The position numbers and the translations under genes are program-made. Under the pieces are notes generated by a model. The model did not search any database and was not told the DNA's origin. It saw only the letters and a program-made list of their open reading frames with translations. From Candidatus Eiseniibacteriota bacterium (GTDB taxonomy: Bacteria; Joyebacterota; Joyebacteria; Joyebacterales; Joyebacteraceae), in NCBI GenBank assembly GCA_043819135.1, contig JBDRFG010000137.1, positions 1 to 16,519 of the forward strand: a stretch of DNA of 16,519 nt. Reading direction: 5' to 3'. The stretch's first letter is position 1; the number at the start of each line of letters is the position of its first letter. This document shows, piece by piece, positions 1 to 13,903 of the stretch.

Positions 1-148
1 CGGCCACCTGGAAGAACTCCGCCGCCCGGTCCTGCTTCTCAAGCGCGTCGCAAAGGTCCGCCGTGTAGGTAGCGATGCCACACTTGCGTGGCAGGCTGCT
101 GCCCACGAACGCGACACGACGTGACCGTTGCTTCATGGCTCTTGGCAT
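1..148 (-). CDS. Glycosyltransferase family 4, N-terminal part (runs off the left edge; not in the ORF track)
   Basis: Manual translation from ATG at 148: MPRAMKQRSRRVAFVGSSLPRKCGIATYTADLCDALEKQDRAAEFFQVA. The 'AFVG..LPR.CGIAT.T.DL' motif is typical of a GT4 subfamily N-terminus. GGAG lies about 11 nt upstream; an alternative ATG is at 136. Confidence 0.85.
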   Translation of the reverse strand, partial: MPRAMKQRSRRVAFVGSSLPRKCGIATYTADLCDALEKQDRAAEFFQVA

Positions 149-300
149 TGATTCTCAATCTCCATCAAACCATCTGCGTCGGCGGCTGCCGGTTGATGTT
201 CCGGGCGAACGCCCGAGTGTTCTTGGCTCAAGCGCGGCGCCCCTCTTGCGAGGGGCGTCGGGTGCCGTAGAGCGTCGGCAGCAGATGCCGTTCAGGAACC

Positions 301-329
301 AAGATACTGCCAATACGGGCTGGCGGCAA
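301..329 (-). promoter_or_regulatory. Putative sigma70 promoter for the left-edge GT4 gene
   Basis: TTGCCG (329-324), 17 nt spacer, TATCTT (306-301). Confidence 0.5.
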
Positions 330-398
330 GGACTCCGTCAAGCTCCACTGACCCACGGGAACCGACCTCTCACCGACGACGTGGCTCTCGTGACCACA

Positions 399-776
399 TC
401 AGCCCGCGTACAAGCTACGCGAGGTACCTGATCCTGCCCGATCTAGAGATCTCCTACCATTCTTCGGCAGAAGGCGCCTCGCAACCAGCCGCTCCCCCAT
501 CGTGTCGTGAATAGCCTCGAAGCAGGCCCCCGCTACCAACTCGATGCGAACACCCGTCTCCTTGGAGGCGGGTGTTTGCACAGAGGCCAGCATGGTCGGA
601 CGGCTGAAGAGGTGCATCAGGATGTCGCCTGTGTCCGGGTCCACCTCAATCCGCTTCATGAACAGGCTGACCCACTGCCGCATCTCCTCCCTGGTCCCGG
701 CAGCGGACATTCCCCCGAACGCTCTGCGGCATTCCTCCACCAGAGACGCGTCAGCCAGAGTGGGCATCGGCCGCAC
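399..776 (-). pseudogene. C-terminal relic of a probable large serine recombinase reading through an att core
   Basis: 'REEMRQWVSLFMKRIEVDPDTGDILMHL' resembles the end of large serine recombinases. It continues 'IELVAGACFEAIH', where LVAGA is the reverse complement of a tRNA-3'-end-like core. An in-frame TGA at 786-788 and the end of the GT-C gene at 820 leave no room for the catalytic domain. Confidence 0.7.
525..539 (+). repeat. att-like core, copy 1 (GGCCCCCGCTACCAA; resembles the tRNA-iMet 3' end)
   Basis: Exact 15-bp direct repeat with 3559-3573. Initiator tRNA-Met typically ends ...CCGGCCCCCGC(T/A)ACCA. Confidence 0.8.
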
Positions 777-819
777 GGCGGCGCGTCAATTGGGTGGAGT
801 CGTAAGCGGCGGGATCTTG

Positions 820-2880
820 TCACGGGCTCCCCGACCCGCCTGCCGAGCCGCGCACTGGCTCGAACTGCGGTTCCGACGGACGTGGCGGAACGTACTCTCT
901 CACACGATACATCTTCGTAACCACTGTCCCCTTCCCGAGCACCGTGCCGTCCTCTGTGATCGCCATGCCCACTCGGTACCAGGGGTAGCTCCGATCCACG
1001 GTGTCGACGACGCGCTCGAAAAGATCAGGCAGCTCGTCGAGCGGAGACGTAAAGGGCTTGAGCCCAACCGTCCGCATGAAAAGGTAGTTGATCCCGGCGT
1101 CCCTCAGGGCCCCGTGTGCCGAAAGCCCGCTCATTCTGCTGATGTCGAGCCCGACGCCGACGTCGTCCCCCATCAGAACCTCGTTGCCGGGGAGGGACGC
1201 GATGAGGGGATAGCGGTAGGTCTGGTAGAAGTCGTGATCGGTCGGCCGAACGAGGAGGATCCGCGTGCCCACGGGAAGTCCGTAGACGATCTCGGGTATT
1301 CGATAGTATGCGAGACGCGACGCACCACGCTGATGCGACCAGATGTGGTGGTTCTCGCGGAACACCACGCGCAGCGTCTCGAGGCCCGAGAAGAGAACGG
1401 CTAGAGAAACGACAGCGATGATGACCGCTCGCGTTCTCTGCGCGACCGCGTCGAGAACAAGCGCGACCGGCACGCACGCAAGTCCCATGACCGGCAGGAG
1501 AAAACGCGGGAGATGGTGCTTCCCAAACCACCAGGTGAGAACACCGAGCGCGATGAGAGCCAGCACGACAACGCACCGCATCCTGACCGCGGCGCGCGCT
1601 TCGCGATCGAGGCCGCGTTTCGCGAACAACACTACGCCCGGGAGGGCGAGCGCCGCGAAGGCCGCTCCGAAGCCGGCCCCTCCGCTGTAGGTGCTGCCGA
1701 CGTGGCGGTCCATCATCGGGAAGACCCACCAGTAAGCACGCGCCGGCACGAACTGGAACTCCTGCCGGAGCCCCGATGACGCGGCCCACTCCCGGATCCC
1801 CATCGACAGCGGTTCGATCGGATTCCCGGTGAGGACAAGATTGCGCACGAACCAGAAGCCCGCCGGGATCGCCAGTGCTACTACGAGAATCCCCGTGGCC
1901 CCGAGAGCGCGGCGGAGTGATGACGGCCCCGGCTGAGCCGCCGAGAGCGCGTGGAAGATGAACACGAGCGGAACGGCAACGATGACAAACGGGAGGATCG
2001 AGTACTTCGTCCCGAGCGCGAGGCCAAGAGCGAAGCCCGCCGCCACGATCTCGCGCGTGCGACCGCGCCCTCCGACACTCGACTCGAGGGATCGAAGAAG
2101 AAAGAACGCGAAGCAGAGAATGAGCCCCGTCACGACGAGATCGTTCTTCGCGATCGTCGTCTGGAAGAACACGATTGGCGCCGTCAGGAAGACGAGCACC
2201 GCGATCGACGCAGAGGCGACCGATGCCCCGAACCTCCGTCCGATGCCGTAGATAGCGAGCGCCGCGAGAAAGGCGAACGGAAGCTGCACGATCGGTACGA
2301 GTTTATCGCTCCCGCCGAGGAAGAGGGCGAGGATTAGGAGCTCGGCGTTCGAGGGGTAGAAGGCGCCCGTTGAACCGTAGACGCCGAGATCGCCGTGCAG
2401 AAGCCAACTCGCCGTGCGCGGGAGGTGATAGGTCAGGACGTCCCAGTGGCGCGGAGGACCTGAGAGGCCCGACGACACCGCGATCGCGAGGAAAACCGCG
2501 CAGACGAAGAGTACTATGATGAGCGCGTCGTGGCGCCGATCGCGATTTCGCCCGGCCGCGGGCCGGCCCTTCCGGAGACGGAACTCGTCCTGTCGAGCGA
2601 CCTCGGGCCGGAGCGGCCGCACGCGACGCCACAGGAGCGACCACGCGGCTGCGCAGAGAAGGGCTGACACAGTGAGCGCGTTCCCAGCGGTGACCATCGG
2701 TCTGCTGGTCGCGGCGGCCAGGATTCCCAGAAGCTGGAATCCTACCACGAGAAGGCTGAAGGCCGCCAAGGCGCCCGCAGCTAGAGCGGCCACGCCAGAG
2801 CGCCAAAGCCTCCCGATTGGGACGGCCGCGAGCAGGAAGAGGAGGACAGTCAAGAAGACCATTAGGGGATCCACAAGCAC
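820..2880 (-). CDS. Multi-pass membrane glycosyltransferase, GT-C fold (ArnT/PMT_2-like)
   Basis: 686-aa ORF with many hydrophobic helices and motifs 'HWDVLTYHLP', 'FYPSNAELL', 'KNDL', 'GLALGTKYS', 'WFVRN...TGNP' and 'PRFLLP'. Start uncertain (GTG 2880, GTG 2874 or ATG 2862). Confidence 0.8.
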   Translation of the reverse strand: MLVDPLMVFLTVLLFLLAAVPIGRLWRSGVAALAAGALAAFSLLVVGFQLLGILAAATSRPMVTAGNALTVSALLCAAAWSLLWRRVRPLRPEVARQDEFRLRKGRPAAGRNRDRRHDALIIVLFVCAVFLAIAVSSGLSGPPRHWDVLTYHLPRTASWLLHGDLGVYGSTGAFYPSNAELLILALFLGGSDKLVPIVQLPFAFLAALAIYGIGRRFGASVASASIAVLVFLTAPIVFFQTTIAKNDLVVTGLILCFAFFLLRSLESSVGGRGRTREIVAAGFALGLALGTKYSILPFVIVAVPLVFIFHALSAAQPGPSSLRRALGATGILVVALAIPAGFWFVRNLVLTGNPIEPLSMGIREWAASSGLRQEFQFVPARAYWWVFPMMDRHVGSTYSGGAGFGAAFAALALPGVVLFAKRGLDREARAAVRMRCVVVLALIALGVLTWWFGKHHLPRFLLPVMGLACVPVALVLDAVAQRTRAVIIAVVSLAVLFSGLETLRVVFRENHHIWSHQRGASRLAYYRIPEIVYGLPVGTRILLVRPTDHDFYQTYRYPLIASLPGNEVLMGDDVGVGLDISRMSGLSAHGALRDAGINYLFMRTVGLKPFTSPLDELPDLFERVVDTVDRSYPWYRVGMAITEDGTVLGKGTVVTKMYRVREYVPPRPSEPQFEPVRGSAGGSGSP

Positions 2881-2899
2881 CTCACTCTGGACGCCTCGC

Positions 2900-3070
2900 C
2901 TACTCCGATCGCGCCCACCGGACGATCAGCCCGATCGCGTCCGCGTGGAGCAGGAGGTAAAGCAGGAGGAGCGAGCAGCACGCGCCGACGATCCATGAGG
3001 AATAGGGCGAGGGCTCCGGAGCTCGCTTCTTCTGCGAACGTGACTGTCTCGCTGGGCGCTTGCGCTTCAT
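2900..3070 (-). CDS. Small (56 aa) basic, single-TM hypothetical protein
   Basis: AGGAG then 8 nt then ATG at 3070. Sequence MKRKRPARQSRSQKKRAPEPSPYSSWIVGACCSLLLLYLLLHADAIGLIVRWARSE*. It lies between a promoter and the GT-C gene (19-nt gap). Confidence 0.55.
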   Translation of the reverse strand: MKRKRPARQSRSQKKRAPEPSPYSSWIVGACCSLLLLYLLLHADAIGLIVRWARSE

Positions 3071-3152
3071 CCTGTATTCTCCTACGTCTCGTGCCGATGG
3101 ACGACAGGTGGGCGATTCGCCCCTCACGGGACGGCCACGGACACACGCGGAG

Positions 3153-3181
3153 ATGATAGCACTGTTATGAGCGGAGACCAA
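3153..3181 (-). promoter_or_regulatory. Putative sigma70 promoter with extended -10 for the small ORF and GT-C
   Basis: TTGGTC (3181-3176), 17 nt spacer ending TGC, TATCAT (3158-3153). Confidence 0.55.
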
Positions 3182-3394
3182 CTCGGACTCGGCGCGGTGG
3201 TGTATCAGTTCCTGTGTGGAAAGGGCTTGGGGCGGCCACAGTGTACCGGGTCCAGGAACATCTCGGGCGTCCTTCACGCGAGCCTGCGGCCGTCCCGGAA
3301 GCACGCTGACCTCGTGGCCGTTGCGCAGTCGACGATGCCGGTCGCTGCGGGTGCACCACCCGGCCGCGCTGCCCTTGCCTCTCCCCAAGTCGAA

Positions 3395-3421
3395 TCGACG
3401 CTCGTGACGCTGGTGACGCTG
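3395..3421. repeat. 9-bp tandem repeat x3 (TCGACGCTC GTGACGCTG GTGACGCTG)
   Basis: Read directly from the sequence; GACGCT occurs at 3397, 3406 and 3415. Confidence 0.7.
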
Positions 3422-3450
3422 TCTCCCGATCTTTCTGCCCGGACTGCCCA

Positions 3451-3573
3451 TCACGCCGCCGTTCCTACCCTCACCATCTCCAGCTCTGCGTGCTTGACTC
3501 CCTAGTAGCGCCAGTGCGTCGTAACGACAGGCAGCCGCTCCGAATCGGCTACTAACCGGGCCCCCGCTACCAA
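3451..3573 (-). pseudogene. Orphan recombinase C-terminal tail next to att core 2
   Basis: Translation from 3573: LVAGARLVADSERLPVVTTHWRY*GVKHAELEMVRVGTAA*. Same frame relative to the core as the 399-776 relic, with an internal TAG at 3502-3504. Confidence 0.55.
3559..3573 (+). repeat. att-like core, copy 2 (GGCCCCCGCTACCAA)
   Basis: Identical to 525-539. It ends in CCA-A and is followed 6 nt later by a 12-bp hairpin, as expected downstream of a tRNA 3' end. Confidence 0.8.
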
Positions 3574-3579
3574 ACATGG

Positions 3580-3607
3580 AGAGCCCGGGTCCCTAGACCC
3601 GGGCTCT
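3580..3607. terminator. Perfect 12-bp stem-loop, probable terminator
   Basis: AGAGCCCGGGTC-CCTA-GACCCGGGCTCT, between core 2 and the stop of the 3662 gene. U-tract is weak. Confidence 0.7.
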
Positions 3608-3661
3608 TCGTCCTAGGAGGAACCACCTCCCGGGGCTGGCGTCTGTGGGGCGAGGTAGTGG

Positions 3662-6574
3662 CTACTGGCCCTCTAGCTCTGACCGGATCATCTCTAGACC
3701 TCGCGCGACCTGCGGATCGCCGGGAGCAAGATCGTCCGCCCTGAGCAGTGAGGCCTCGGCCCTCTCAAGCACCCCCCGGAGCTCGTCCGGATCTGCGCCG
3801 CCCTGAGATGACAGACCCATCCATCGCTGATAGTCCTCTGACGCCTTTCGAACGTAAGCCATGACGAGAGCGCTGCCGCCGAGGTGACTGACCTCGGGAT
3901 CGTCCGGGAGGATGCGGTCGGCTATCCAGATCTCCTCCAGAGCCGCGTTCATGTTCCCTTCGTACAAGTGGAGCGAGCTCAAGAGAAGATGTCGACGACC
4001 TTCGATGGCCCGGTCCAACTCGGCGCCGAAAGCGTCAGGCCACGTCGACGGTGGGTCCTCCAGGATCGACGCGAAGTCGGGCCTGGCAGCGAGGAGCGCC
4101 TCGAGGTTCTCGGGCCTCGTGTCCCTGCCAAAACTCCGGGACTCCGAGAACTCAAGAAGAGCGTGATCGTCCGTGTTGATCGGACCGTCCCCCACGAACT
4201 CCCGTATCGCTGCGGAGTCAAGCACCAGACACGACACGATCTTTGCCGGCGAGTAAAGCCCCACCGACTTGAGCAGCTCGCCGGCGGTTGGCACACGCGA
4301 GTCTGAGCCTTCGTGCGTCCCGGAGCTCCCGCGCGACAGCGCAGGCTCGAAGATCGTCTCGAGGTTTGCGAGCGTGGTTGTGACCCCGTTCGGACCTCCT
4401 ACGAGCACGCCGTGTTGGCTCGCCATGAAGACGGCCGACTCGGGGAAGACCGAAGAGAACGTACGCAGCAGCACCCTGAAGTCCGAGGACGAGAGCTGGT
4501 GGAGCGGAAGGTACTGAACCATCACTCCGCCCGCGGCAAGCCTCGAGCGGCACAGCTCATAGTAGTCCTTCGTGTAGAGTGCAGGGCTCGCTACGGCGGG
4601 GTGGATCGGATCGCAGCTGATGACATCAAACGTCTTGTCTGTGCCGATGACATAGCTCCGTCCGTCCTCTATGACCCCGCGCACTCTCGAGTCCTTGAGG
4701 ACATCGTAGTTGTATTCGGCGAACACATCAGCGACGTCGAACACGCCGGGGGCGATTTCCACAACCGTGATCTCCTTGAACGGATGTGACGCGACGGCGG
4801 CAAGGGTCGTTCCCATGCCGAGTCCGATCACGAGGGCCGAGTCCCGGCGCTCGGCGAGAATCGCGGGGAGGTGTCCGAGGAAGCCCGCTGTCTGGAGGGC
4901 GCCCATGGACGTGTCCATCGCGAACGTACCGTTGGTGTAGAGACGTCTCACCCCGGTGTCCGTGTCCTCAACCACGATAATCGATGCGCCAATCTCCTCC
5001 TTGTAATAGAGGGTGGTCGTCCCAGCCCCCTTTTCAATCTTGCCGAGGTAGTATTCGCCTCGGTGAGAGGAGGCGGCAACGATCAGGACGGCGACGCCGA
5101 CGGCCATGGCTGCGTACGACAAGCCGACACGCGTTACGCGACGAGGTCGCATCGCTGTCAACAGCAGGAAGCCACCGAACCCCACCAGCAGTATGGCAGA
5201 GATGAGAACGGTCCCTTTCGTTCCAACCGCAGGTATGAGCACGAACCCGGCGAGCAGACTTCCGAGGACAGCGCCAGCCGTGTTGGCGGCGTAGACGGCC
5301 CCGATGCGTCCGCCGAGTCCACGACGCGGCTTTCCACCGGACGCGTCATGACTCGACCCAGCGCGTCCCGTTCGACCTGCGGCGGCCGCCAGCAGGATCG
5401 GGAAGAGCGCACCCGACAGGGCCGCTGGCACGAACATAATGGCCGACGAGAGCCCCAGCCGTCCCACGAAGATCTGACCCCACGTCGGCCCCTGCCCGGG
5501 GGGCGCCAAGGTGCCCACAATCCCCTGGAAGATCTTAGCGCTCTCGAAGATGAGAGGTATGGCGAGCGCTGCCGTCGCGCCGAACCCGATGAGCAGAAAC
5601 GGCACCGCGAATGGCGTCTCTCTGCGCCTCGAGGAGACGATGAGACTCCCCGCGCCGATCCCGATCAGGAACGCCATGAGCATCGCGGAGACCGAGAAGA
5701 TACTCGAGGCAAGCATGAGACGGAGCACCCTGCCCCATACGACCTCGCAGGCGAGCGCTGAGAAGCCCGCCAGGAACGTGGCTGCGTAGATGCCCCACGA
5801 CGGAATCCGAGGTCCGGCCTCGGCCTTCGCGTCCGACGCGGACGACTGCTCGGACGCATCTTCGTCAGCCGCCCTACCACCCGTCCGCACCAGCACGAGC
5901 GCCGCCGCGCCCGCGACGACGTTCATGAGCACGGCCACGAGCGAGGTCGACGAGGTGCCAAGATATCGAAGAAGCACGAAACCTGCCAGGAAGACTCCGA
6001 GCACGGCTCCTAGCGTGTTGACGCCGTAGAGCCCGCCGATGAGCCGCTGCGACGCCCGCGTGCGACAAAGACGGACGGCGGCGCGAACCATCACGGGGAA
6101 CGTCGCCCCCATGAGCATCGTGGGGACGATTAGGAGCAGAAAGACGCCCGCGACTCGCAGGACGACAGCCATAGACGTCGGTCCGCCGGGTCCGTAGAAC
6201 ATGTAGTAGACCGCGCTGGCGCCTCGGACTCCGAGCGGGACTAGGAGAGCGGACACGCCGATACCGAATTGAAGGAACGCATAGATGGTCAGAGCCCGCG
6301 CGCGCCGTCTGTCGAAGACGCTTCCCAGGTACCCCGATCCGAAGGCAAGTCCCGCCATGAAGGCCGCGAGTACGGTGGCGACTGCGGCGGTCGAGCTTCC
6401 GAGCGAGAACTCGAGCGATCTGATCCAGACCACCTGGTGCACGAGGCCCGAGGCACCGGAAACGAAGAAGATCGCAAACAGAACGAACGTGACTCCGCGG
6501 ACTGTCGGAAGCTCTCTGGCCCTGAAAGGAGCTCGAGAAGCTCTCTTGGACTTCCTGCGGTGCGATTCCGACAT
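3662..6574 (-). CDS. Fused MFS-like membrane domain / spermidine-synthase-like SAM-dependent domain with C-terminal TPR-like helices
   Basis: N-terminal TM region 'FFVSGASGLVHQVVWIR', 'LYGVNTLGAVLG'. Class I SAM motifs 'LVIGLGMGTT', 'VVEIAP', 'EDGR', 'FDVISCDPIHP', 'LYTKDYY..RL..GG'. Start placed at ATG 6574 (GAGAGG upstream) rather than 6601. Confidence 0.9.
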   Translation of the reverse strand: MSESHRRKSKRASRAPFRARELPTVRGVTFVLFAIFFVSGASGLVHQVVWIRSLEFSLGSSTAAVATVLAAFMAGLAFGSGYLGSVFDRRRARALTIYAFLQFGIGVSALLVPLGVRGASAVYYMFYGPGGPTSMAVVLRVAGVFLLLIVPTMLMGATFPVMVRAAVRLCRTRASQRLIGGLYGVNTLGAVLGVFLAGFVLLRYLGTSSTSLVAVLMNVVAGAAALVLVRTGGRAADEDASEQSSASDAKAEAGPRIPSWGIYAATFLAGFSALACEVVWGRVLRLMLASSIFSVSAMLMAFLIGIGAGSLIVSSRRRETPFAVPFLLIGFGATAALAIPLIFESAKIFQGIVGTLAPPGQGPTWGQIFVGRLGLSSAIMFVPAALSGALFPILLAAAAGRTGRAGSSHDASGGKPRRGLGGRIGAVYAANTAGAVLGSLLAGFVLIPAVGTKGTVLISAILLVGFGGFLLLTAMRPRRVTRVGLSYAAMAVGVAVLIVAASSHRGEYYLGKIEKGAGTTTLYYKEEIGASIIVVEDTDTGVRRLYTNGTFAMDTSMGALQTAGFLGHLPAILAERRDSALVIGLGMGTTLAAVASHPFKEITVVEIAPGVFDVADVFAEYNYDVLKDSRVRGVIEDGRSYVIGTDKTFDVISCDPIHPAVASPALYTKDYYELCRSRLAAGGVMVQYLPLHQLSSSDFRVLLRTFSSVFPESAVFMASQHGVLVGGPNGVTTTLANLETIFEPALSRGSSGTHEGSDSRVPTAGELLKSVGLYSPAKIVSCLVLDSAAIREFVGDGPINTDDHALLEFSESRSFGRDTRPENLEALLAARPDFASILEDPPSTWPDAFGAELDRAIEGRRHLLLSSLHLYEGNMNAALEEIWIADRILPDDPEVSHLGGSALVMAYVRKASEDYQRWMGLSSQGGADPDELRGVLERAEASLLRADDLAPGDPQVARGLEMIRSELEGQ

Positions 6575-6711
6575 CAGGTTCCTCTCATAGCGCAGGACCA
6601 CGATTCGGCCTCTGGCTTAGCCACCGTGTGCCCTCTCACGTCCAAGGCGCCACGGACGAGGCAGTCGCGTTCAACCGAGTCGATTATGGGCTGCTAACTT
6701 GCCTATGGCCA

Positions 6712-6740
6712 ATTTTGCAGGCCCTACTCGAGGGTGTCAA
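6712..6740 (-). promoter_or_regulatory. Putative sigma70 promoter for the spermidine-synthase-like gene
   Basis: TTGACA (6740-6735), 17 nt spacer, CAAAAT (6717-6712). Confidence 0.5.
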
Positions 6741-6761
6741 GTGCCGTAACCAAATATGTCT

Positions 6762-6798
6762 AACCAAGTACTCACCCATCGTGTCCTGAATGGCCTCG
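6762..6798. repeat. Diverged copy of 483-519 (recombinase-tail relic)
   Basis: 30/37 identical, ungapped. Minus-strand peptides are EAIQDTMGEYLV and EAIHDTMGERLV. Confidence 0.8.
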
Positions 6799-6877
6799 CA
6801 GCCAGAGTGCCACCCTTGGCCTTGAACCTCACCTCGACCACGTCAGAATTCCGACCCAGACTTCTCTCTTGGACTTC

Positions 6878-6896
6878 GTAGCGGACCCCCGCTACC
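6878..6896 (+). repeat. att-like core, copy 3 (CCCCCGCTACC at 6886-6896) within the dyad GTAGCGGA-CC-CCCGCTAC
   Basis: 11-bp match to cores 1 and 2. The minus strand reads VAGVRYEVQERSLGRNSDVVEVRFKAKGGTLAA. It overlaps the flippase stop codon. Confidence 0.65.
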
Positions 6897-8268
6897 GAGC
6901 GCGCACGCGCCCCGCGAGTTTCCGTACAAACCCACCATACAACGCGAGGTCTTCGCGCCGGATGATGACGGTCTCTGCGAGGCCGCACCCGGAAAGCCGC
7001 GTGAAGAACGCGAGCATGAGCGCGCTCTGGAACGTGTAAGCGATGGTCGACGCCCACGCCGCGCCCTCGATGCCGTGCCCGGGTATCCACAGTAAGCAGA
7101 GTCCGGCGTTCGTTCCAAACGCAATGGCGGTCGCGATCGTCTGGTAGATGCGGCGATCCCTGCCGGAGAAGTACCCGGACAGCACTACAGCGATTGACAG
7201 CATGGCGACACCCGGTATTAGGACGCGGAGAGCTCGGAGCGCAGGTAGGAACTCTTCACCGTAGAAGAGGAGTATGAGCGACCGAGACAGGAAATACAGC
7301 ACGACGCCGGCCAGCAGGGTGACCGCAAACGCGTTCCTGGTAACGCGCGGCGTCAGCTCGTTCGCTTCTTCCTGCCCGACCGACGAGAGCCTTGGAAAGA
7401 GAACGACCTGAACTGAGTGCGGGATGTGGGACAGCTTCTCGGCCAGGAGGACCGCTATCGAGTACAGCCCCTGAGTGTGCAGACCCGCCATGGACAGGAT
7501 CAGGAACATGTCGAACCGGTACATGAACGTGACGAAGATGTTGCCGACATGCCCCTGCAGTCCGTACACGACTGACCTTCTGAACATCCCCGGCGGCGGG
7601 CGCTCGAACATTCGTTCGCCTCTGAGTTCGCGTCGCGCCACCAGTATCGCTACGACGGTCACGCAGAACTCGCTCGCGATGTAGGCCGTGAGCGCGCCCC
7701 GTGAACCACCGTGGAAGACGAAGAGGTTCAGGCACATCAGCGCGAGCAACACGCCCGCCTGCATCAGGTTGGCCAGGTTGAACCAGCGGATCCTGTGCAT
7801 GCCCAGCAGAAGCGCGACGGACAGATACTTGAGCAGGAGGATCGGGATCAGCACCGTCGCCAGGCGAAGCACCGACGCGAGGACCGGGTCCGACGCGCCG
7901 CCGTAGAATCGAAGGAAGACCAGGTAGCACGGGACCGCGACCGCACTGACCGCAAGGGTCATGAGCAGCCCCTGCCCGTTTATCTGACCGATGGAGTAGC
8001 GCTTCTGGGAGAGCAGATAGGTGTGGGACGAGTCGATGCCGAGAAGCCCGATGAAGGCAAAGAGCGCCGGGAACGTAACGGCTGATATGTAGGTTCCCTG
8101 GCCGTCCACGCCCAGAAGCCGCGCGATGAGAATGGACGTCGGGATATTGATGAGGACGATGCCAATGCGCGATGTGAACGTCATCAGGCTGTGCCTGAAG
8201 ACGGTTCGCGCCGAACTCTGGCCGTCCACGTGGTCCCGCAACCTCCACCCCCGTTCATCGTGACTCAC
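6892..8268 (-). CDS. Oligosaccharide/polysaccharide flippase (Wzx-like, MOP superfamily)
   Basis: 458 aa, highly hydrophobic, with 'ARLLGVDGQG.Y', 'YRFDMFLI', 'GLYSIAVLLAE', 'LFPRLS' and 'GIEGAAWASTIAY'. GTGA overlap with the upstream GT4 stop. Confidence 0.9.
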   Translation of the reverse strand: MSHDERGWRLRDHVDGQSSARTVFRHSLMTFTSRIGIVLINIPTSILIARLLGVDGQGTYISAVTFPALFAFIGLLGIDSSHTYLLSQKRYSIGQINGQGLLMTLAVSAVAVPCYLVFLRFYGGASDPVLASVLRLATVLIPILLLKYLSVALLLGMHRIRWFNLANLMQAGVLLALMCLNLFVFHGGSRGALTAYIASEFCVTVVAILVARRELRGERMFERPPPGMFRRSVVYGLQGHVGNIFVTFMYRFDMFLILSMAGLHTQGLYSIAVLLAEKLSHIPHSVQVVLFPRLSSVGQEEANELTPRVTRNAFAVTLLAGVVLYFLSRSLILLFYGEEFLPALRALRVLIPGVAMLSIAVVLSGYFSGRDRRIYQTIATAIAFGTNAGLCLLWIPGHGIEGAAWASTIAYTFQSALMLAFFTRLSGCGLAETVIIRREDLALYGGFVRKLAGRVRAR

Positions 8269-9740: not shown

Positions 9741-10356
9741 GTGAACTGGGTTCCCATGGCGATAGTGACCGCGATCGGATTTGCCTCGGCCGGCAGCTAC
9801 GCGAAAGCGCTGTCGAAGAGGACGCGCGTTTACGTGGTCACGTGGGCGTTCATTGCGCTGTCGGCGCCGTGGACGGCCCTGGCATTGATGCGGCAGGGCA
9901 TGCCCCCGCTCGGCGACAAGTTCCTTCGCGCCGCTCAAGGCGATAGCATCTGAGAAGGGAAGCCTCCTGACGCTCGTCGTCGCCATCTGGAGCATCTCAG
10001 CCGTCTTCGACAAGGTCGCGACCGTCGAGAGTTCGCCGGTCTTCTACACCACGTTCTTCGCGCTCGCGTACGCGCCGTTCGTCGTCTTCGGCGTGAGGAA
10101 GAGCTCCCCGGACCTGGTGACCTGGCCGCGGCTCCTGCTGCTTGGACTCTTCACTGCGATCATGATACTGAGCCAGTTCACGGCCATTGAAATGACGGTC
10201 GCCAGCTACGTCATCGCCATCAAGCGCGCGGGCATGGTGCTGTCGGTCGTGTTCGGGTACTTCTTCTTCAAAGAGAGACACCCGCGAGCCAGGCTCACAG
10301 GTGCGCTGCTGATGACTGCCGGAGTGATCGTTCTGTCGCTGCAGGGTGGACCCTAG
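9741..10356 (+). pseudogene. EamA/DMT family transporter with internal deletion and frameshift
   Basis: Frame 1: MNWVPMAIVTAIGFA...PLGDKFLRAA, then stop at 9953. Frame 2 from 9928: APLKAIASEKGSLLTLVVAIWSISAVFDKVATVESSPVFY...VASYVIAIKRAGMVLSVVFGYFFFKERHPRARLTGALLM. Combined length is about 207 codons, versus about 290 for a two-repeat EamA. Confidence 0.8.
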
Positions 10357-13300
10357 GTGTCCCCGTCACCGGATCGACCGGCGGCCTCTCCCAGCCCCAG
10401 CCCCGTGAAGCGCGACAGGTCCCCCGACCGCCCCGATTCGCCCAGGATCTCGGCCGAGGTCCGGATGTCGCTCGCGATGTCCGGACGCGAGAGGAACGAG
10501 GGTCCCGCGTCGCCAAGCTCGCGGACGAGTCCCACCGCCGCGTCCAGGCAGCAGGCGGCGTTCTCTGCCGAGTCGCTCTCTCCGCGGGATATGCGAGCCA
10601 GCAGGCAGCGGCACCTGAGAAGCAGCTCCCGCTCCCCCATGGACCAGGCCATGTCACAAGCGGTCACGGCCGCCTCCCTCGCTCCCGCGCGGTCGCCGCT
10701 CTCGAGAAGCGTCTGGGCGCGGTAGAACTCGGCGGCGCCCAGAACGGATTCCAGGCCCAGTGAGCGCGCCTCCTCGACCACACCGTCGAGCACGGCGGTC
10801 GACTCGTCGAGCTTGCCCTCGCGGCGAAGTGCCCGTCCGAGTTCCGACGCGACCTGCAGGAGCGTGATGCGGCCGCCGCTTGACTCCGCGTGCGTCCGCG
10901 CCTTCTCGAGGTCGGTCACAACGGAATCGGAACCCGCCAGGTTCCCCATGGTTCCACGGGCCAGAAGCGCGTCCGCAATCAGCTCTTCGTTGCCGATCTC
11001 GTCGGCCATCTCGAGGGCACGCGCCACCGTGTCGGCCGCGATGTCGCAGTTCCCCAGCGAGCATTCGAGCTTGGAGCGCGCGGCCAGCGACCAGGCGACG
11101 CCGTTCTTGTCGCCGAGTTCCTCGAAGATGCCGAAGGCCTCTTCTTGGGATTCGAGGGCGGCCTGGTATCTCCCCTGCAGCGCCATCACCGTTGCCATGT
11201 AGCCGCGCGTCTCCGCTTCGCCGCTGCGCCATCCGATCTCTTTGGAGATCTTCAGAGCCTCGAGATATCTGGCCATCGCCTTGTCGTGGCGACCCCGCAG
11301 GCGTTCGATGTTCCCCAGGTAGTTGAGCGATATCGCGATGCCCTTCTTCTCACCCAGCTGCCTGCGCGCCTCGAGGGCTCGCTGGAAGTAGACCCCTGCG
11401 TCGTCGACCTTTCCCTGGATCAGGTACACGTTGCCGATGTCGTTCAGGCAGAGTATCTCGGCCATGCGGTCGCCCAGGCCCGACTCGACCTTGAGTGCCT
11501 TCTTGTAGCTCTCGAGCGCCTCGTCCAGCGACCCGCGCTCCTCGTAGGCGGTCCCCATGTTGATCATGTTCTCCGCCGTCCCGCGGACATCGCCCAGCTC
11601 TCTGCTGATGTCGATGGCCGCCTCGTAGGTCTCGATACACTTCTCGTAGTCGCCCCTGACCTGATAGACGACGGCCATGTTCGAGAGAGTCGCGCTCTCC
11701 CCGCGACGGTCTCCTATCTGTCGCTTGATCTCGAGCGACTCGAGGTAGTGCTTGAGCGCCTCGTCGTATCTGTCCAGGTAGTAGTCGGCCAGACCGATCG
11801 CGTTCAGGACAGTTGCGCGTCCCTCATCGTTACCGAGGAGAGTGTTGAGCGAAAGCGCCCGGTATAGGTATTCCAGCGCCTCCTGGCCGCTGCCCTTCTT
11901 GATGTTGACGCGCCCCATGGCGAACAGCGCCGTGACGAACTTGGGGTCCAGCTCGATGATCCGCTCGAGGTTTCTGATGGCGCCGTCCCAGTCGCCCTTC
12001 ATCTCGTAGGCCTGGGCCAGCTCGTAGACGGCACTCAGGTTGTTTGGCAGTAGCTGGACCAGGAGCTCGAACGCCTCGATCGCACGGTCGATCTCACCGG
12101 CCACCATCGCTTCCCTGGCGGTGATGAAGAGCGAGTCCGCGCGGGTGAGGCCGTCTCCTCGCCGCGCGGCGTTGCCGAGGGCGTCGCGCGCCTCCTCCAC
12201 CCTGCCCGAGTTCGAGAGCGCTTCGCCCAGATAGGTGTAGGCGAGCGCGAAGTCCGGGTCGCGCTCGACGGCCTCAGAGAGAAGAGTGATGGCCTCTAGG
12301 TTGTTCCCCTCGTAGAGCTTCGCAAGGCCGTCGACGTACGCCCTGATCGCCTCTGGCTTCTCCGAGCCCTTCTCTCCGACCATCGTGACGACCAGGTCTC
12401 GCGCGCCCTCGCTCTGGATCGTGCGTCGAACCTGGGCCGCGAGGTGAGCCACGACCTGCAACAGCTCGGCCTCCGTCGAGGCCTCGGCCTTCTCGTGCAC
12501 GTCTTCGCCCGTGGAGGGTCGCCGTATCGAGACGTCGACCCGCGCCGCGGGACCGAGCTTGACGAAGCTGCCGCTGACGATCGTGTCGACGTTGAGAAAC
12601 TCGCCGATCGACCGGAGCGCCATCTCGTCGAGCGCGGAGTCGGGACGCAGCTTGAGGTCCGCCATCAGCGTCGTCAGACGGTCGGCCGGCACGACGCGCA
12701 ACGTCGGGACCTGCGAGAGGTCGCTTCCCAGCATCACCTGAAGGCCCGACTGCATCCAGTCGGCTTCGGGATTGCCGGTCATGTTCCTGAAGGGAAGCAC
12801 GACGATCGAGTGCTGTGGGTCTATCCAGGTGGTCTCCTGGAGCGGCTTGTCAACGACCCCGGTGGCGGTCCGCCACGCGGTCTGTGCCAGCGAACCGAGT
12901 TGGGTCCCCAGCACCGAGGATGCCGGCGCACCGAACTTCTCAAGCTCCGCGGCCACCGCGCCGCAATCGTCGAATCGGTCGGCGGCCTTCTTCGCGAGGG
13001 AGCGCGCGACGATCGCCTGATACTCCCGCGGCACTCCGGCGTCGTCCGGTATCGGAGCGGGTGGAGTGTTGACGACCGCGTATAGAACCTCCACGTGGGT
13101 CTCCCCTGGGAAGGCCGGCCGGCCTGTTGCCATCTCGTAGAACACCGCACCGGAGGCGAAGACGTCCGCCCTCGCATCGACGGGCGTGCCTCGCGCCTGC
13201 TCGGGAGACATGTAGCGCGCCGTCCCCATCACGGCGCCTTCACGGGTGAGTGACATGGCCTGCGTCGCGTCGGAGCTCTCCGACTGCTGAAGCAGCTTGG

Positions 13301-13757
13301 CCAGGCCGAAATCGAGTATCTTGACCAAGCCGTCCGGCCTGACGACGATGTTCTCGGGTTTGATGTCGCGGTGCACGATGCCCAGCTCGTGGGCCTTACC
13401 GAGGGCGCGGGCGATCTGTCTGGAGAGGTCGAGAATCTCGCCGAACGACGGGATGCCGGCGGATATCCTCGCGCGCAGCGTCTCGCCATCGACGAGTTCC
13501 ATGGCGATGAACGTCATGCCGTCGACTTCATCGATCTCGTAGATGGTGGCGATGTTGGGATGATTGATGGCGGACGCGGCCTGCGCCTCACGGATGAATC
13601 GCTGGACACGCTCGTGGTCGGAGGCGACGTCTTGCGCCAGAACCTTGAGCGCGACACGCCGGCCCAGCTTCGTGTCCTCGGCGGCGTAGACGATGCCCAT
13701 GCCGCCCCGGCCGAGTTCTTCGATGACGCGGTAGTGAGAGATCGTTTTGTCTACCAT
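10353..13757 (-). CDS. Serine/threonine protein kinase with TolB_N-like domain and multiple TPRs
   Basis: Intact Hanks motifs [21 protein letters not shown] and YMSPEQ. 'SIVVLPFRN' domain follows, then a long TPR array. ATG 13757 preferred; GTG 13772 possible. Confidence 0.95.
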
Positions 13758-13903
13758 GCTGTCCCGTATCACGCCTGGATTCGAGTCTGAGAAGGCGTCC
13801 GCCGCTGAGTATTGGTCACCGGCGCCGAGCTTCAGGCTACCAGATGCGCGGCGTCCTGACCACCCGGTTCCTGAGACGGGGGCGTGAGCGCCCGGTACGT
13901 AGC

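Follow-up and report, generated by a model that had tools for sequence, protein, structure and literature searches.

Attachment sites that lie inside the gene for their own integrase have already been published for several elements, namely the DsiB islands, the rumA ICEs and phage Mx8. In the tandem ssrA islands of Dehalococcoides, many of which have no integration module, the gene for the serine integrase DsiB was proposed to reach full function in two settings only, on the circle and behind a neighbour that supplies the 3´ fragment; the overlap was left unexplained in 2011 (McMurdie 2011, PMC3146451). In phage Mx8, attP lies within int, a 112-residue C-terminus becomes 13 residues, and the recombinant enzyme is described as less active, a tested precedent for a switch of this kind (PMC6070905, PMC4701971). 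Directionality factors (RDFs) of large serine recombinases (LSRs) are predicted to bind the junction of the second DNA-binding domain (DBD2) with the coiled coil (CC), mostly via an added strand, and models of the SCCmec LSRs carry extra C-terminal strands on DBD2 that might obstruct the RDF site (PMC12286644). How insertion rather than excision is controlled in serine integrases without a known directionality factor is presented there, for SCCmec, as an open question (PMC12286644). As for targets, the 2014 Islander paper states that no serine integrase was then known to insert at a tRNA gene (PMC4383910). The small serine recombinase of phage RSM does target a tRNA gene.

The locus described here resembles the DsiB islands in that the integrase gene overlaps attL at its 3´ end, with the stop codon beyond the island, and in that the islands stand in tandem, some without an integrase. 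It differs in its target, tRNA-fMet rather than ssrA (tmRNA), in the six-gene module (with DsiA, ParB and Mom), which was not seen as such in the window, and in the gene ends, which are reported as divergent for DsiB and are conserved and codon-constrained here. A swapped serine integrase C-terminus is shared with the streptococcal rumA ICEs (PMC4701971); unlike here, those are conjugative and have a protein-coding target, and the accessible portions of the source describe no tandem tail exchange or conserved tail module. Mx8, unlike this system, is a phage with a tyrosine recombinase and a much longer swapped part. The first-pass annotation of this DNA had named the SSV1-type 'suicidal' archaeal integrases as its precedent. 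These do have the att site inside the integrase gene (PMC8371274), but they are tyrosine enzymes broken into an Int(N) and an Int(C) part, both inactive, whereas here the enzyme is of the serine family, all three of its Pfam domains lie to one side of the core and the exchange is confined to a short tail, so the better precedents are DsiB, the rumA ICEs and Mx8. The Islander expectation of a tyrosine integrase on board (PMC4383910) likewise does not fit the serine family found here. A literature search covering mainly openly available main texts returned nothing on conserved detachable tails of tRNA-fMet serine integrases, and the available part of PMC12884075 added nothing further on such tails. 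What appears to be new is that the detached tails are stretches of conserved, exchangeable protein, of which one class has a predicted seat at the RDF site.

We analyzed a window of 16,519 nt that is an entire contig (C137) of the source genome (G000; the window is thus G000:C137). Its first junction comprises three features.

Positions 537 to 785, minus strand: relic of the C-terminal end of an LSR, corresponding to residues 527-617 of an intact paralogue.
Positions 525 to 538, plus strand: att core 1, an exact 14-bp copy of the tRNA-fMet 3´ end, with the crossover inferred at about 527/528.
Positions 399 to 536, minus strand: class B tail of the left-hand island, conserved over about 536-450.

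The ORF at 776-399 (minus strand, 125 aa) has no stop across core 1 and continues into the tail, as the first-pass annotation had noted. Its residues 4-88 are 64% identical over 85 aa to the end of an intact 660-aa recombinase encoded on contig C12 of the same genome, and residues 527-617 of that paralogue are all that is present on the window contig. Because the C12 protein has Resolvase, Recombinase and Zn_ribbon_recom domains, the earlier family assignment, made on motifs alone, proved correct; the closest named homologues of the window recombinase are from Candidatus Eisenbacteria. The relic itself has no catalytic, recombinase or zinc-ribbon domain and, searched alone, no Pfam or NCBIfam match, and the window ORF does not count as an LSR when catalytic plus DNA-binding domains are required.

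ORF 776-399 consists of the last ~85 residues of an LSR fused in frame to the DNA of a neighbouring island. Direct evidence comes from a relative (locus L183, contig G002:C417), which matches window 1-539 at 90% up to the last bases of the core and beyond the core has a neighbour other than that of the window; window 1-524 and its class B tail travel together in L183. Since the shared stretch ends right after the core, the 125-aa ORF is, as had been proposed, a chimera of a recombinase body and a neighbour's tail. The further suggestion, a possible built-in directionality or stability switch, was not supported for this copy. The window copy is a dead relic within an island stack and cannot switch anything, because the catalytic domain is missing and a premature stop truncates the element's own tail. 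We also considered the relic as a conserved stand-alone small protein and dropped this candidate, as the starts of the stubs scatter (query 387 to 553).

Two further cores, two hairpins and two further tails were located in the window.

Positions 545 to 580, plus strand: 16-bp hairpin just downstream of the tRNA end (-33.8 kcal/mol, z -6.1, 0/200 shuffles).
Positions 3451 to 3570, minus strand: class A tail, the relic element's own, with 39 conserved codons and a premature TAG at 3504-3502.
Positions 3559 to 3572, plus strand: att core 2, an exact copy of the tRNA-fMet 3´ end, 3034 bp from core 1.
Positions 3576 to 3611, plus strand: hairpin resembling a terminator, where the next island, one without a recombinase, begins (-32.3 kcal/mol, z -5.0, 0/200 shuffles).
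Positions 6794 to 6895, minus strand: class C tail, supported by 21 class C sites and their alignment.
Positions 6884 to 6897, plus strand: att core 3, degenerate, in overlap with the stop of a polysaccharide flippase gene (8268-6892).

No tRNA gene was found within the window, and an Rfam search of window 1-7200 gave no meaningful match. The full tRNA-Met(cat) gene that matches the cores lies at G000:C68:16923-16999; we take it to be the initiator tRNA (tRNA-fMet) from its sequence features. Exact copies of the 12-mer core number two in the window against 0.007 expected, and 10 genome-wide against 1.1 expected. When cores 1 and 2 were joined in silico, the resulting excision circle had an open 102-aa frame that ends in the second tail, in agreement with the in-frame fusion proposed earlier. 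In junction classes A, B and C, arm symmetry was highest at the point separating the first C of the 12-mer from the second (0.58, 0.48 and 0.57, from 5, 8 and 4 sites, respectively), with no such peak in the tRNA class.

The hairpin at 545-580 is encoded antisense within the recombinase frame, and a near-identical hairpin follows the real tRNA on C68. Although absent from the list of a simple terminator scan, it likely functions as the terminator for the tRNA transcript. With this hairpin on the opposite strand before the core, the end of the recombinase gene therefore also carries the tRNA end and a probable terminator. Core 3 is followed by no hairpin (z -0.65). No promoter-like sites were found near cores 1 or 2. 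Upstream of a 979-aa cargo gene, three overlapping sigma-70-like promoter matches were noted on the minus strand at window 6683-6740, a region with four such matches against 0.7 expected. A fourth type of junction, in which the arm resembles the tRNA T-arm over ~30 bases before departing from it, giving short tails, was seen at five sites (G000:C97:140, C19:14, L033:15229, L041:14933 and L046:160). Separately, two tmRNA genes with the same tag peptide were called in the source genome, on C26 and C109.

Given that the window copy is a relic, we turned to 17 proteins matching the recombinase C-terminal region, the C12 protein included. The reading frame crosses the core in 15; the other two are partial proteins that stop before it. 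Eight of the 17 end in a 13-residue peptide read from the tRNA antisense strand, two have tRNA-like ends and five end otherwise or are cut. This is the pattern anticipated by the first-pass annotation, which had named integrated homologues with a tRNA-antisense peptide as their end among the expected support. No match to a non-recombinase family emerged, and no homologue apart from the two partial proteins ended before LVAGA. The antisense peptide is likewise the end of a stub that neighbours the real tRNA on C68. The C12 gene has as neighbours a 170-aa protein of unknown function and a Toprim-like protein.

A second LSR clade, 25% identical to the first (the clade of C12), provided both end states. 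P0086, a near-complete recombinase, has a class A tail as its C-terminus; the C-terminus is the tRNA peptide in its sister P0133 (77% identical) and yet another tail in P0134. In all three, as in the C12 protein, the LSR domains scored above the Pfam cut-offs. By sequence comparison, then, attP lies inside the recombinase gene, and natural proteins occur both with the tail (tail-on) and with it replaced (tail-off). Three of nine loci (L071, L072 and L073, 30-43% identity) read into tRNA-Cys instead of tRNA-fMet; these recombinase relatives are from Armatimonadota and two Firmicutes.

To characterize the detached tails, 207 candidate sites were classed on DNA identity in the 33 bases that follow the core, which gave 28 class A, 29 class B, 21 class C and 16 tRNA-like sites; the 113 unclassified sites are mostly chance matches and include 15 exact cores. 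For conservation tests, short, non-collinear and duplicate rows were dropped, leaving 25 of 28 rows in A, 20 of 29 in B and 18 of 21 in C. Distal to the binding arm of ~36 bp, pN/pS in the recombinase frame was 0.49, 0.56 and 0.69 for A, B and C (0.36, 0.34 and 0.62 after correction), compared with 0.91-1.33 in the other two same-strand frames. The mirrored reverse frame gave the same signal, as expected, and class C also had a signal in a second reverse frame (0.72). In-frame stops were two, one and zero for A, B and C versus 48, 15 and 24 in frame +1, and a deficit of conservation at third positions had permutation p-values of 0.006, 0.001 and 0.06, which overstate significance because the sequences are kin. 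Codon-patterned conservation extends to 87-117 bp, Trp, Arg and Gly columns are invariant, and identity falls towards background beyond the tail stop. The detached tails thus have the sequence signature of a conserved protein in three classes. Changes shared among copies are under purifying selection (93 synonymous and 117 non-synonymous of 210), and changes private to one copy are neutral (36 synonymous and 82 non-synonymous of 118, with an expected synonymous fraction of 0.26-0.31), so array-borne tails are now drifting.

The classes differ in their ends. The class A stop is fixed at codon 40 in 18 of 25 distinct relatives, and length variants stay in frame by two residues (15 motif-located matches of 41 aa, 38 of 39 aa); class B has no fixed stop. 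Alignments of A with C and of B with C extend over no more than the core-proximal 10-17 residues. In the window, the class A tail has its premature TAG at codon 23, after which the frame resumes to the usual stop at 3453-3451, and the class B tail has Arg in place of the consensus Trp. The same early TAG at codon 23 occurs in G000:C92 near 4362, a position at which relatives have Gln, Ala or other codons. At L177:2210 (G020:C141), a hybrid tail with a class A start and a class C end in the same frame suggests recombination between tails at a shared motif.

A class A profile searched against 1.84 billion proteins gave 115 cluster representatives, 94 of which match within three residues of the C-terminus; at least three of the matches are unrelated repeat proteins. 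The upstream parts of 26 matches fell into eight groups against nine recombinase-like references, which were chosen from the class A matches themselves, so that six of the 26 are self-matches. A single tail class thus stands behind recombinase ends that are 25-36% alike or less, which suggests a conserved docking surface. The profile had no match among solved structures (best E 1.2) and no usable match in the Atlas. No longer protein with the class B tail region was found among 65 candidates, itself weak evidence.

We next considered where a class A tail might sit on the enzyme. A complex between residues 37-592 of a C12-clade LSR body and a class A tail taken from a different genome was modelled with a score of 0.64, against 0.00 for the best of three controls, with contact agreement between runs of at least 62% and a partner pLDDT of at least 60; the same mark was reached by 116 of 157 solved and two of 215 mismatched pairs, a benchmark that is only roughly applicable with our own alignments. 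Tail residues 14-24 are predicted to pair with body residues 578-588, the last strand, and the tail also touches residues 429-450, the helix after the zinc ribbon. From the Pfam position and the P0086 model, this seat would be the DBD2-CC junction. The model thus supports binding, with the class A tail predicted to dock at the strand edge where RDFs bind. Solved LSR-RDF complexes exist, none with a sequence match to the tail, and likeness to them could let two halves of one gene pass as a complex. In an AF2 model of P0086, which matched solved serine integrases with a best E of 1.7e-12, the natural tail forms two strands (531-538 and 548-555), with a single-chain pLDDT of only 51-59. For the window relic plus class B tail, the predicted fold put the tail in a low-confidence helix and gave no strand (pTM 0.32), so our structural reading is limited to class A.

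We consider it fairly probable that ORF 776-399 marks a junction between neighbours in a stack of LSR islands at tRNA-fMet and that the exchangeable tail is a working part of the enzyme. In this scheme attP lies within the recombinase gene, some 30-40 codons short of the end, and it is the tailed enzyme that the free circle would encode. Upon insertion at the tRNA, the tail would give way to the 13-residue peptide from the tRNA antisense strand and be left stranded at the far end of the island. A newer island inserting at the tRNA would then fuse the older gene in frame to the newcomer's tail, as in 776-399. We infer that the tail is a real part of the enzyme, in class A probably a beta-hairpin that completes the sheet of DBD2 at the coiled-coil junction, the predicted place of RDF binding.

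The tail-on form would have to be able to integrate, because the incoming circle encodes no other form. Building a stack takes attP x attL events, and these leave hybrid junctions resembling attP, so the enzyme would also have to tolerate varied site pairing. By analogy with SCCmec Ccr, which has extra strands at the RDF site and relaxed att pairing and may serve as a model for the tail-on state, the tail-on form is probably tolerant of different att pairs, and this would account for the stacking. The Ccr extension, unlike the detachable tail here, is a fixed part of the protein as described in PMC12286644, and our proteins stay below the NCBIfam CcrA/B/C cut-offs (47-87 bits with the CcrB model, cut-off 900). 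In the tail-off form, activity is probably reduced or a separate factor admitted, which would make the inserted state more stable. A directionality or stability switch, as the first-pass annotation had suggested, is plausible for the recombinase family. In its most specific form, which we put forward tentatively, the detachable beta-hairpin would plug the RDF site, integration would remove it, excision would restore it, and each newcomer would re-arm the neighbour's enzyme by supplying its own tail. If so, directionality control would be written into the att site itself, in common to distant serine-integrase clades, and integron-like cassette stacks at tRNA genes would be explained. The natural tail-on/tail-off pair P0086/P0133, together with the predicted binding site, makes the question of a switch testable. 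There is also a practical consequence for genome-engineering screens, as an integrase cloned from integrated sequence carries the tRNA-derived end and not the tail of the free element.

Other readings of the tails are less probable. The tail could be an ordinary structural end whose loss lowers folding or activity as a mere side effect of a compact module of gene, att site and terminator, without any particular part in directionality; the predicted contact merely prolongs the domain's last strand, the lower activity described for recombinant Mx8 integrase (PMC4701971) would fit, and the overlap may serve compactness, given that the gene end also holds the tRNA end and the hairpin. We nevertheless find this unlikely, as the predicted tail site coincides with the RDF site of PMC12286644 and one tail class stands behind such dissimilar recombinase ends. 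Less likely still, the tail could be a separate directionality factor of 40 residues made from attR, with the reversed CCA end of the tRNA providing an NTG codon. TTG is indeed the codon right before the tail in 53 of 78 tails, gene callers start 14 of the 115 class A matches there, and the tail is predicted to dock in trans at an RDF-type site. However, integrase-RDF fusions favour attL x attR (PMC5737554), and a fused RDF would block integration by an incoming circle; moreover, private changes in array tails are neutral, two copies have the early TAG, a strong hairpin lies just upstream, and the promoter scan gave no match close to cores 1 or 2.

We also asked whether the tails might be non-coding att-arm or other DNA or RNA elements, open by chance in DNA of 63% GC. 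The signal in the first 36 bp is weak in classes B and C (pN/pS 0.68 and 0.88), class B has no fixed stop, and the ends of DsiB are reported as divergent, with a 'trivial' variable C-terminus considered for DsiB (PMC3146451). The codon pattern that persists well past the arm, the fixed class A stop, the in-frame two-residue length variants and the invariant columns all argue against such elements, which we regard as the most improbable of the three alternatives and, for class A, as largely refuted. We thus retain a working, exchangeable part of the enzyme as the preferred reading of the tails.

Further features of the window are cargo genes and a tail remnant; its tails follow in the order B, A, C.

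Positions 1 to 148, minus strand: 5´ portion of a cargo gene for a family-4 glycosyltransferase, which belongs to the left-hand island and is truncated where the contig stops.
Positions 820 to 2880, minus strand: cargo, a 686-aa membrane protein with weak glycosyltransferase (PMT-like) matches, below cut-off (Pfam PMT E 2e-4; NF047440 E 1e-4).
Positions 3662 to 6601, minus strand: cargo of the next island, a fused MFS/spermidine-synthase-like protein (NF037959, above cut-off).
Positions 6762 to 6802, minus strand: second class B tail, a coreless remnant, 80% identical over 41 nt to 483-523.

In L183, a 699-aa ORF matches Glycos_transf_1/Glyco_transf_4. The left-hand cassette (L183:180-3428; window 1-148) has this family-4 glycosyltransferase and a GH130 phosphorylase and no recombinase, and its other half is an 88% match to G000:C17. 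Core sites occur on at least eight contigs of the source genome and in many relatives, typically spaced 1-8 kb apart. Of the 78 A, B and C tails, 55 follow a short end without a recognized recombinase motif, usually with a hairpin, and among the loci examined only two stand behind a full-length LSR of the first clade; in one of the two, C12, no more than the first ~10 codons of the tail remain. First-clade ends pair with class A in six of 11 neighbour pairs, some of them duplicates, and the idea of one tail class per recombinase type was not borne out by these pairs. The right-hand element was not found whole in 30 relatives, where only cargo homologues were seen. A search of viral contigs for the circular form gave three weak 15-residue matches and no circle. 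A search of sequencing runs gave one DNA run sharing 0.11 of the words and, among those listed, no RNA run; on window 1-7200 the DNA run covered 10 of 30 bins, with no core covered and no joints.

A flippase-end junction like core 3, with a core that lacks CCA, was found at seven loci of relatives (L084, L111, L119, L121, L130, L141 and L148) with an A, B or C tail in front. Core 3 may mark where the stack finishes on its far side, or else a second insertion site; among 24 tRNA loci, several of them cut by contig ends, none showed an empty site in which the tRNA directly adjoins the flippase. The window cores are on a different contig from the tRNA, and no overlap of contig ends linking the window to C68 was found. 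On C68 itself, the tRNA and two further cores lie on one contig; this is the arrangement, a tRNA gene and, bordering the island, a co-oriented fragment displaced from its 3´ end, by which the Islander work defines islands that target tRNA genes (PMC4383910). In one relative, four contigs (G011:C57, C17, C5 and C58) each end in the same tRNA-fMet, and the two that we examined have different recombinase types behind it, possibly as strain variants with different first islands. At L033:16439 (G016:C60), the frame after the core enters an apparent fragment of what we take to be a transposase. Large Ser/Thr kinase-TPR proteins are encoded near core sites at window 10353-13772 and at L001:4598-7978.
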